A stretch of 39,130 nucleotides of DNA from a virus (taxonomy: Duplodnaviria > Heunggongvirae > Uroviricota > Caudoviricetes). Made by a program: the position numbers and the translations under genes. Within the stretch, counting starts at the first letter, position 1; each line of letters begins with the position of its first letter. Location of the stretch: positions 1-39,130 of IMG/VR virus record IMGVR_UViG_2563366972_000008; one strand, written 5' to 3'. The notes beneath the pieces were generated by a model. That model worked only from the letters and a program-made list of their open reading frames with translations. It did not search any database and was not told where the DNA came from. This document shows positions 22,031 through 22,340 of this stretch, in pieces.

Positions 22031-22105
22031 TGGAGCGGGCAGCGGGAATCGAACCCGCATCATCAGCTTGGAAGGCTGAGGTAATAGCCATTATACGATG
22101 CCCGC
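22031..22105 (-). tRNA. tRNA-Gly (anticodon UCC)
   Basis: Cloverleaf by hand folding: acceptor GCGGGCA/TGCCCGC, anticodon stem TCAGC/GCTGA with loop CUUCCAA, TTCGATT T-loop, encoded CCA. Confidence 0.8.
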
Positions 22106-22108
22106 ATA

Positions 22109-22184
22109 TGGTGCCGACTACCGGAATCGAACTGGTGACCTACTGATTACAAGTCAGTTGCTCTACCTACTGAGCTAAGTCGGC
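22109..22184 (-). tRNA. tRNA-Thr (anticodon UGU)
   Basis: Acceptor GCCGACT/AGTCGGC, anticodon stem ACTGA/TCAGT with loop CUUGUAA, TTCGATT T-loop, CCA. Confidence 0.8.
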
Positions 22185-22186
22185 AC

Positions 22187-22263
22187 TGGACCGCCACCGG
22201 GGACTCGAACCTCGCACACTCAACTTAAAGGGTTGACGCTCTTTCCTGATGAGCTAGTGGCGG
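22187..22263 (-). tRNA. tRNA-like gene with noncanonical anticodon loop CCUUUAA (possibly Lys-UUU; C at position 33)
   Basis: Acceptor CCGCCAC/GTGGCGG, T-arm with TTCGAGT loop and encoded CCA; anticodon loop lacks the usual U33 and the T-stem has one mismatch. Confidence 0.55.
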
Positions 22264-22264
22264 T

Positions 22265-22340
22265 TGGTGGCCCTTGCTGGATTTGAACCAGCGACCTGGC
22301 GATTATGAGTCGCTCGCTCTCACCACTGAGCTAAAGGGCC
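22265..22340 (-). tRNA. tRNA with CAU anticodon, ileX/ileZ-like (Ile2 or Met)
   Basis: Acceptor GGCCCTT/AAGGGCC, anticodon loop CUCAUAA, TTCAAAT T-loop, CCA; resembles the Ile2 tRNA carried by lambdoid phages downstream of Q. Confidence 0.8.

Follow-up and report, generated by a model that had tools for sequence, protein, structure and literature searches.

Four tandem tRNA genes lie on the minus strand of a 39,130-nucleotide stretch of Caudoviricetes DNA (IMG/VR record IMGVR_UViG_2563366972_000008; the whole stretch is hereafter called the window), and one of them, a tRNA-Lys(UUU) gene carrying a cytidine at position 33, is the main subject of this analysis. Four minus-strand tRNAs had been placed at 22031-22340 in an earlier note on this DNA, and exactly that span was returned by ARAGORN and by the Rfam tRNA model RF00005. 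The four genes are as follows, in the order of transcription.

22265..22340, minus strand: CAU tRNA, ileZ-type tRNA-Ile2 (ARAGORN, Met/CAU; Rfam RF00005, 72.5 bits)
22187..22263, minus strand: non-canonical tRNA-Lys(UUU) with C33, hereafter the C33 gene (ARAGORN, Lys(ttt); Rfam RF00005, 44.4 bits)
22109..22184, minus strand: tRNA-Thr(UGU), thrU copy (ARAGORN; Rfam RF00005, 73.8 bits)
22031..22105, minus strand: tRNA-Gly(UCC), glyT copy (ARAGORN; Rfam RF00005, 64.9 bits)

All four scores exceed the RF00005 gathering score of 29 bits, with E-values of 2e-6 to 2e-14, which excludes a chance match for any member of the array. The order of transcription is CAU, UUU (C33), UGU, UCC; the intergenic spacers measure 1-3 nt, and each gene encodes its own CCA. 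The odd gene, described previously as the fourth, is in fact the second to be transcribed (the third along the plus-strand coordinates); it lies between the CAU and Thr genes and begins 1 nt after the former.

The sequence of the C33 gene (22187..22263, minus strand) can be written as CCGCCAC-UA-GCUC-AUCAGGAAA-GAGC-G-UCAAC-CCUUUAA-GUUGA-GUGUG-CGAGG-UUCGAGU-CCCCG-GUGGCGG-U-CCA. The cloverleaf, the encoded CCA, the CCUUUAA loop with C33 and the single T-stem mismatch that had been read from the letters were all confirmed in the sequence and by the Rfam match (44.4 bits, E = 2.1e-6), which extends over the full length of the model and includes all four stems. A 5-bp anticodon stem (UCAAC/GUUGA) closes a 7-nt loop, C32 C33 U34 U35 U36 A37 A38, in which the conserved U33 on the 5′ side of the anticodon is replaced by C33; the T-stem mismatch is A51·C63, the acceptor stem has C1-G72 and the discriminator base is U73. 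The conserved tertiary nucleotides are all present, namely U8, A14, G18-G19, A21, G53-T54-T55-C56, A58 and C61. Minimum free energy folding recovered a cloverleaf neither for this gene nor for the argN gene introduced below, and was uninformative.

In an alignment of the C33 gene with K-12 lysT, the shared positions were only those generic to tRNAs, and by this comparison the gene is unrelated to the lysT of the host. The comparison with the ileZ-argN-argO arrays of Shiga toxin (Stx) phages that the earlier note had recommended proved decisive: judged by its sequence, the gene is an anticodon-switched paralogue of Stx-phage argN, which encodes tRNA-Arg(UCG). Over the whole tRNA body, the two genes have in common the acceptor stem, U73, A20 and the T-arm with its A·C mismatch, and they differ mainly in the anticodon arm, where the argN loop CUUCGAA corresponds to CCUUUAA, the pair G30-C40 is replaced by A30-U40 in a compensatory double change, and U27·G43 is replaced by U27-A43. 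Outside the anticodon arm, G3-C70 replaces G3·U70, and single-base differences occur at positions 7, 17 and 20a and in the variable loop. Thus, the acceptor stem, D-arm and T-arm of argN were conserved while the anticodon stem changed in a compensatory manner. The G3·U70 wobble, which is the major identity pair for alanyl-tRNA synthetase, is found in the acceptor stem of Stx argN (L003:1623-1699, from the Stx2a phage F349; see also L002:1632-1707) and in the Lys copies of PPompW and of phage Evi. Because argN, which has U33, scores 43.0 bits against RF00005, the low score of the C33 gene is a property of the scaffold; C33 itself was considered as its cause and rejected on the same evidence.

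With respect to aminoacylation, arginine identity depends on A20 and C35 (arginyl-tRNA synthetase, ArgRS), and the C33 gene does not encode a tRNA-Arg, since its anticodon is UUU (U35), although A20 is kept. The identity set of lysyl-tRNA synthetase (LysRS) consists of U34-U35-U36 and the discriminator A73, of which the UUU anticodon is present and A73 is replaced by U73. The array and its "tRNA-Lys" label are already in the RefSeq annotation, where the intact allele is called tRNA-Lys by PGAP; the gene therefore counts as a standard isoacceptor, an outcome that the earlier note had named as one that would refute it, and C33 is real and unusual nonetheless.

Other anticodons occupy the same position in related arrays. 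In the IMG/VR contigs and phage records, ileZ is followed by Arg(UCG) of the Stx type, by Gln(UUG) or by the C33 Lys gene. The Gln(UUG) form, found in two loci (L130 and L132), has a normal U33 loop and scores 54-56 bits, and a lone relative on the same scaffold (L131, 48.3 bits) combines the canonical Lys loop CUUUUAA with A73, so that the loop CCUUUAA is one transition away from it. Because one slot holds Arg(UCG), Gln(UUG) and a canonical-loop Lys(UUU) with A73, anticodon switching on the argN scaffold is considered real, and the set represents a compact natural example of this process. The scaffold also degenerates outside E. coli, as indicated by Yersinia phage YeP1, in which an array between Q and the holin contains a copy on the same scaffold with the loop CAUUGCC (A33, C37; L004:1502-1579) that falls below the Rfam threshold and is annotated tRNA-Pseudo-TTG; in another locus (L129), the anticodon arm of the copy is disrupted. 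The C33 gene itself occurs in two architectures, Ile2-Lys-Thr-Gly (about 75 loci) and Ile2-Lys-Arg(UCU) (13 loci).

The other three genes of the array are of known types. The CAU gene, previously called ileX/ileZ-like, is identical to Stx-phage ileZ at 76 of 76 positions and about 89% identical to K-12 ileX; it is unlike metT, is labelled tRNA-Ile by PGAP, and keeps C4-G69 and C5-G68 of an ileX-like body as opposed to a Met elongator or initiator body. These two pairs are determinants for TilS. By sequence, the CAU gene is an ileZ-type tRNA-Ile2, which would decode AUA once its predicted lysidine modification has been made. The Thr and Gly genes match K-12 thrU (76/76) and glyT (75/75), respectively, without a single difference; each of these host genes is present in one copy. 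Because of the exact identity, the possibility that Thr and Gly are nuclease-resistant variants was rejected.

Codon usage was compared with these specificities. In the late and early genes of the window, respectively, AUA occurs 6.3 and 16.9 times per 1000 codons, ACA 11.3 and 19.0 times, and GGA 12.0 and 12.1 times; in K-12, the corresponding values in the standard codon table are approximately 4.3 for AUA, 7.1 for ACA and 8.0 for GGA. AAA is used at 33.0 per 1000 codons in the phage and at approximately 33.6 in K-12, and AAG is 1.7-fold up in the late genes. The rare codons most over-used by the phage are AGA and AGG, and a tRNA-Arg(UCU) is not part of the array. The earlier suggestion that the array compensates for codon bias therefore fits the ileZ, thrU and glyT copies and does not fit Lys(UUU). 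Since AAA is not over-used, an extra supply of tRNA-Lys matters only if the host tRNA-Lys is depleted.

A lysine-codon recoding site is also present in the window. The tail-assembly chaperone genes G/GT have a programmed -1 frameshift site of the dnaX type: on the minus strand, the heptamer A AAA AAG lies in frame at 11435-11429, and the stop codon of G, TAG (11428-11426), comes immediately after it. The two open reading frames (ORFs) lie at 11426-11812 and 11124-11414 on the minus strand, with T in the -1 frame, and are followed by the tape-measure gene (7851-11084, minus strand). The identical site occurs in E. coli strain 4/4 and in phage Evi. An association between the intact C33 allele and this site was considered and set aside because the three genomes checked share the tail module, which leaves the comparison without power. 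Moreover, the Evi allele, which lies in an Ile2-Lys-Arg array, differs in having G3·U70 and a C7·A66 mismatch while the slippery site is the same; hence no discriminating association between the two was seen.

U33 is nearly universal in tRNAs and supports the U-turn of the anticodon loop. To place C33 in context, 584 distinct ARAGORN-called viral tRNA genes (L253-L372) were taken as an unbiased sample, which may include false positives. U33 was present in 562 of them and C33 in 14 (2.4%, across many anticodons); bases other than U at this position amounted to about 3.8% (14 C, 5 A, 3 G), and none of the 20 Lys(UUU) genes in the sample had C33. A targeted scan revealed at least 46 viral tRNA-Lys(UUU) genes with the CCUUUAA loop on unrelated scaffolds; however, in view of the frequencies in the unbiased sample, a convergent, Lys-specific C33 in phages was rejected as an effect of database size. 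Among viral tRNA genes, C33 thus recurs as a minority state without being specific to Lys. The same surveys (L253-L372 and L133-L252) revealed several C33 tRNAs on a single contig (for example, Asn, two Thr and Glu in L200), five viral contigs with both CCUUUAA and CUUUUAA tRNA-Lys(UUU) genes, and seven viral tRNA genes with the ochre-reading anticodon UUA. E. coli TsaBCDE does not form N6-threonylcarbamoyladenosine (t6A) on a U33C tRNA, as found with initiator tRNA-Met U33C, whereas the human and nematode t6A enzymes tolerate the natural C33 of their own initiator tRNAs (PMC8887486). The C33 gene has U36-A37-A38, yet its C33 is an anti-determinant for the E. coli enzyme, and the tRNA probably lacks t6A37, a prediction transferred from a different tRNA, initiator tRNA-Met U33C.

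The distribution of the array was determined in complete E. coli genomes. The 401-nt array region was present at ≥80% coverage in 574 of 5426 genomes, in which it is labelled Ile, Lys, Thr and Gly by PGAP, and the C33 gene family was present in 798 of 5426, with 279 genomes at ≥99% identity, 474 at 95-99% and 45 at 90-95%. In a genome-contig scan of species representatives, the exact scaffold of the C33 gene was found only in E. coli and Shigella flexneri. Within the array, nucleotide diversity (π) was about 0.00-0.02 per site, compared with 0.2-0.3 in the flank on either side (55 haplotypes), in an analysis that used a 5′-end pattern and thereby excluded damaged alleles of the C33 gene. When a T-arm anchor was used instead, the view that the gene is as conserved as its neighbours had to be rejected, since it carries the most damage. 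In the 94 loci with four tRNAs, 75 differences from the window allele were counted for the C33 gene, against 28 for Ile2, 40 for Thr and 51 for Gly, and copies with three or more differences numbered 21 for the C33 gene and one for each neighbour; because this excess comes mostly from one or two lineages, the number of independent damage events is small. Among 114 Lys-type copies collected from IMG/VR with the same anchor, the allele of the window is the commonest (67 copies), and C33-UUU-A37-A38 (positions 33-38) is invariant in all 114, variation in the loop being confined to position 32.

Alleles from E. coli genomes were also sampled evenly down the identity ranking. The sampled 97.4% allele has a 1-nt deletion in the D-stem and the 96.1% allele has C4T, U8C and C11T; relatives with degenerate sequences have lost U8 or a portion of the D-stem and no longer match Rfam. 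The U8C allele lies beside ydfJ in what is left of a decayed prophage, where the holin is truncated, the tail genes are fragments and Ile, Thr and Gly are still annotated, and the intact allele is found in a complete HK97-like prophage, an arrangement that fits a function needed only for lytic growth. A full-length copy of this holin follows 12 of 26 degenerate alleles and 49 of 59 intact ones, but common ancestry and the mosaic nature of the lysis cassettes confound this comparison. These results point both ways: the C33 gene is kept in active phages and is elsewhere lost more readily than its neighbours.

The following features surround the array.

24858-25907, minus strand: DUF968 gene, in the region upstream of the array
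24474-24845, minus strand: RusA gene, in the region upstream of the array
24134..24493, minus strand: Q antiterminator (Pfam Phage_antitermQ, E = 3.8e-45)
22465..22485, minus strand: hairpin and T-run resembling an intrinsic terminator, upstream of the array, tR′-like (terminator scan)
22350..22378, minus strand: candidate sigma-70-type promoter, TTGCAA-17 nt-TATTAT (consensus scan)
21523..21738, minus strand: P21-type class II holin, the first late protein gene 3′ of the array (Pfam Phage_holin_2_1, E = 1.4e-35)

The candidate promoter is separated from the first tRNA by a 9-nt GC-rich stretch, CCTGCGCCC. By consensus scan alone, this candidate is no better than chance; however, TTG (-35), a 17-nt spacing and TATTAT (-10) are kept in essentially all of 120 related loci, including those with diverged upstream sequences and the Stx-type arrays, from which we infer a real array promoter with a short GC-rich leader and predicted activity. 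By analogy with the organization of lambdoid late operons, late transcription would need Q to pass the hairpin at 22465..22485. On the 3′ side of the array, the minus strand encodes the P21-type holin, a DUF1327 protein and lysozyme, and the order of array then holin recurs in E. coli A20 and in strain 4/4. The spacer between the Gly tRNA and the holin (21740-22030, minus strand) has two long inverted repeats, AGTCTTTCAGTC...GACTGAAAGAC and TATGAATGATCGCC...GGCGATCATTCATA, as well as a terminator-like hairpin at 21823-21808, and is highly variable among related loci (π about 0.2-0.3).

The earlier placement of the array between a cassette and the holin was also correct. The cassette, upstream of the array and between it and Q, consists of three genes on the opposite strand (22573-24120, plus strand): the first protein (303 aa) has a match in PADLOC, to the candidate defence family PDC-S42 (E = 3e-53), and none in Pfam, and the two small ORFs (81 and 128 aa) have no family match and appear hydrophobic. 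The cassette looks like a defence "moron". A fifth tRNA, Ser(CGA), was detected far from the array by ARAGORN and Rfam (38150-38239, minus strand; 57 bits); it adjoins a 341-aa ORF (37072-38097, plus strand) near the end of the window, and the two could be a prophage attachment site and an integrase. A strong Rfam match to the sok antitoxin RNA (93.7 bits; 26883-27055, minus strand) marks a hok/sok-type type I toxin-antitoxin locus among the early genes, and E. coli A20 has an annotated hokD at the corresponding position. Downstream of the tRNA arrays in Stx-type loci, STnc100 and AgvB/AsxR small RNAs were found (L129:5169-5425, L132:335-547 and L003:3197-3279; Rfam scores up to 158 bits), and no equivalent above the Rfam threshold was present in the window.

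The sequence of the C33 gene was also compared with the determinants of nucleases that attack tRNA-Lys. Host tRNA-Lys(UUU) is the main target of AriB of the PARIS system, which cuts at C40|A41; U39A abolishes cleavage, A41C and U16C impair it, and T5's own tRNA variants bypass PARIS (PMC12409363). Exclusion of lambda by P2-OLD is due mainly to cleavage of thrU, at paired CNG motifs of the anticodon stem, and the nuclease also cuts tRNA-Lys once, as a secondary target; a resistant phage tRNA-Thr has an altered CNG motif and a shorter anticodon stem, and in a library of 245 coliphage tRNAs, phage tRNA-Lys(UUU) genes rescued AriB toxicity (PMC12445682). PrrC also targets host tRNA-Lys(UUU), cutting 3′ of U33. 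Phage tRNA-Lys genes of several genera rescued phages from PrrC170, whereas E. coli tRNA-Lys rescued poorly (PMC11555353). At the positions relevant to AriB, the C33 gene has C16, G39, U40 and U41, where the host tRNA has U16, U39, C40 and A41, and neither strand of its anticodon stem has a CNG motif, although argN has CAG and CUG there.

Our tentative preference, which stops short of a probable conclusion, is that the C33 gene provides a nuclease-insensitive spare decoder of Lys codons under weak selection. On this reading, the four genes form a small, tightly packed tRNA operon among the late genes of a lambdoid, HK97-like E. coli prophage, with Q on one side and the holin on the other; its own promoter and late transcription antiterminated by Q would both drive its expression. 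Its ileZ gene and its thrU and glyT copies would serve AUA, ACA and GGA, respectively, all of which end in A, are seldom used in E. coli and are used to excess by the phage. In the remaining slot, the argN scaffold of Stx phages has been converted from UCG (Arg) to UUU (Lys), with a body unlike that of host tRNA-Lys where the defence nucleases read it, namely PARIS AriB and, by extension, the related P2 OLD, so that decoding of AAA and AAG in the phage could continue when host tRNA-Lys is destroyed. Expression of the gene, charging of its product by LysRS, decoding and nuclease resistance are predictions of this reading. C33 would make the product a weaker decoder, probably one without t6A37, and because the gene has decayed in many prophage lineages, its value appears small or conditional.

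Several observations weigh against this interpretation. Decoding may be poor because U33 supports the U-turn and TsaBCDE fails on U33C, and the discriminator U73 is not the A73 recognized by LysRS. The differences at the AriB site follow automatically from the foreign scaffold and are no evidence of selection for resistance. Furthermore, the Thr gene, being thrU, keeps both the AriB site and the OLD motif (C28-U29-G30 and C40-A41-G42), and hence the array as a whole was not built for nuclease evasion; the earlier idea of nuclease resistance accordingly fails for the exact thrU and glyT copies. Damaged alleles are also common. Only 279 of the 798 carrier genomes have a copy that is ≥99% identical, and among the 114 Lys-type copies, 17 have U8C, mostly with C4T and C11T, and 14 have the D-stem deletion, the copies outside these classes and the intact one showing milder changes. 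Neither the 97.4% nor the 96.1% allele is annotated as a tRNA by PGAP, although their neighbours are, and neither matched Rfam even at E ≤ 0.01.

It is a serious possibility, if doubtful on balance, that the C33 gene is a non-functional or barely functional relic: an argN-family Lys tRNA crippled by U33C and carried as a decaying passenger in a tight and useful module. The change to C33 would remove the U-turn uridine and keep the E. coli enzymes from forming t6A37, the discriminator U73 is not the one used by LysRS, and the loop lies one transition from the canonical CUUUUAA. Damage is recurrent, including U8C with C4T and C11T, the D-stem deletion, 5′ truncation and the degenerate YeP1 and L129 loops; the gene has accumulated 75 differences against 28-51 in its neighbours, and the decayed prophage remnant has kept Ile, Thr and Gly intact but not this gene. 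Moreover, lysT-family genes number six in the host (a single visible cluster has five of them), AAA is not rare, and survival could be explained by the position of the gene, wedged between useful tRNAs with 1-2 nt spacers in a module that spreads as a unit. However, the intact allele is the commonest (67/114) and occurs on many flanking backgrounds (55 haplotypes) within a block of low π relative to its flanks, positions 33-38 never vary, the anticodon stem changed in a compensatory manner, and the excess damage derives mainly from one or two lineages, that is, from few independent events. C33 is not lethal to tRNA function, since about 2.4% of viral tRNA genes and the functional initiator tRNAs of eukaryotes have it. 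The earlier note had left the choice between a Lys-like tRNA, a pseudo-tRNA and a decoy; the evidence leans towards a Lys(UUU) tRNA whose efficiency is doubtful, and the decay seen repeatedly among relatives leaves room for a pseudo-tRNA.

An improbable alternative is that the array, including the C33 gene, serves codon-usage compensation as a whole. All four anticodons read A-ending codons (AUA, AAA, ACA and GGA), the phage over-uses three of these, AAG rises in the late genes, and Thr and Gly exactly duplicate host genes that are single-copy; however, AAA use equals that of the host, tRNA-Lys(UUU) is among the best-supplied host tRNAs, so that one C33 gene would add little, and the most over-used rare codons, AGA and AGG, are left without a tRNA-Arg(UCU). 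A specialized role, in which the product either tunes the -1 frameshift at A AAA AAG or acts as an uncleavable decoy occupying tRNA-Lys nucleases, is very unlikely: no tRNA other than tRNA-Lys(UUU) reads the site at 11435-11429, codon-anticodon stability would be altered by C33 and by the likely absence of t6A37, and PrrC cuts directly 3′ of nucleotide 33, but Evi has the same slippery site with a different allele in its Ile2-Lys-Arg array, and U33C is without effect on another anticodon nuclease, yeast gamma-toxin, which cuts a U33C stem-loop normally (no literature data were found on the dependence of PrrC on base 33). The narrower proposal that the late-expressed C33 product, as a "slippery" or otherwise specialized decoder, sets the efficiency of the phage's own frameshift at this site has still less in its favour and would be surprising; a variant of the idea is that it keeps the tail-chaperone frameshift working while host tRNA-Lys is cleaved.

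Some of these readings would have consequences beyond this locus. tRNA-based escape has so far been demonstrated with the tRNAs of tRNA-rich virulent phages such as T5; if the intact C33 gene is functional as a spare decoder, temperate phages would use the same counter-defence, with a gene family found in common lambdoid prophages. If it is a relic, automated pipelines label a gene with C33 and U73 as an ordinary tRNA-Lys, and phage tRNA arrays combine exact copies of host genes with phage-specific genes and with genes in decay. If the frameshift were tuned by its product, a virus would tune recoding with its own altered tRNA. A literature search found nothing on the derivation from argN, the combination of C33 and U73, anticodon switching in the slot, the exact identity of the Thr and Gly genes to host genes, or the decay of alleles, and searches on ileZ, argN and argO returned unrelated papers only.

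Several known systems resemble parts of this array. Eukaryotic cytoplasmic initiator tRNA-Met functions with a natural C33 in a 7-nt loop that is normal in other respects, and its C33 is an anti-determinant for the bacterial and yeast t6A enzymes (PMC8887486). However, the initiator is unrelated in sequence, acts only in the P-site and has co-evolved modification enzymes, whereas the product of the C33 gene would need to act as an A-site elongator in E. coli. Phage T5 likewise encodes a tRNA-Lys(UUU) that departs from the host at the AriB determinants, with C16, A39 and C41 (PMC11464382, PMC12409363). T5 is a virulent phage with about 24 tRNAs, for which resistance and rescue were demonstrated experimentally; the phage of the window is temperate, and its gene, with C33 on an unrelated scaffold, is a candidate for such a role. 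In addition, rescue from PARIS used T5 variants of the Lys, Thr and Asn tRNAs, whereas the companion Thr gene in the window has the sensitive host sequence. The tRNA-Thr(UGU) genes that confer rescue from P2-OLD have the same UGU anticodon as this Thr gene, and the phage of the window is of the lambda type, which P2-OLD excludes; unlike the resistant genes, the Thr gene is thrU at 76 of 76 positions and keeps the CNG motif (PMC12445682), and from its sequence it should be sensitive to P2-OLD.

Another counterpart is the 933W-type ileZ-argN-argO array. The two arrays share their position between Q and the first late genes, the promoter footprint and an identical ileZ, and their second slots share the C1-G72 acceptor stem, U73, A20, the A51·C63 T-arm and similar Rfam scores (43.0 and 44.4 bits). 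They differ in that the second slot of the 933W type has the loop CUUCGAA (UCG, U33), a G-C pair at 30-40 and G3·U70, where the window has CCUUUAA (UUU, C33), an A-U pair and G3-C70. From the third slot onward, the 933W type has argO and the window has the thrU and glyT copies, and the array of the window is followed by the holin, whereas that of the Stx phages is followed by stx.

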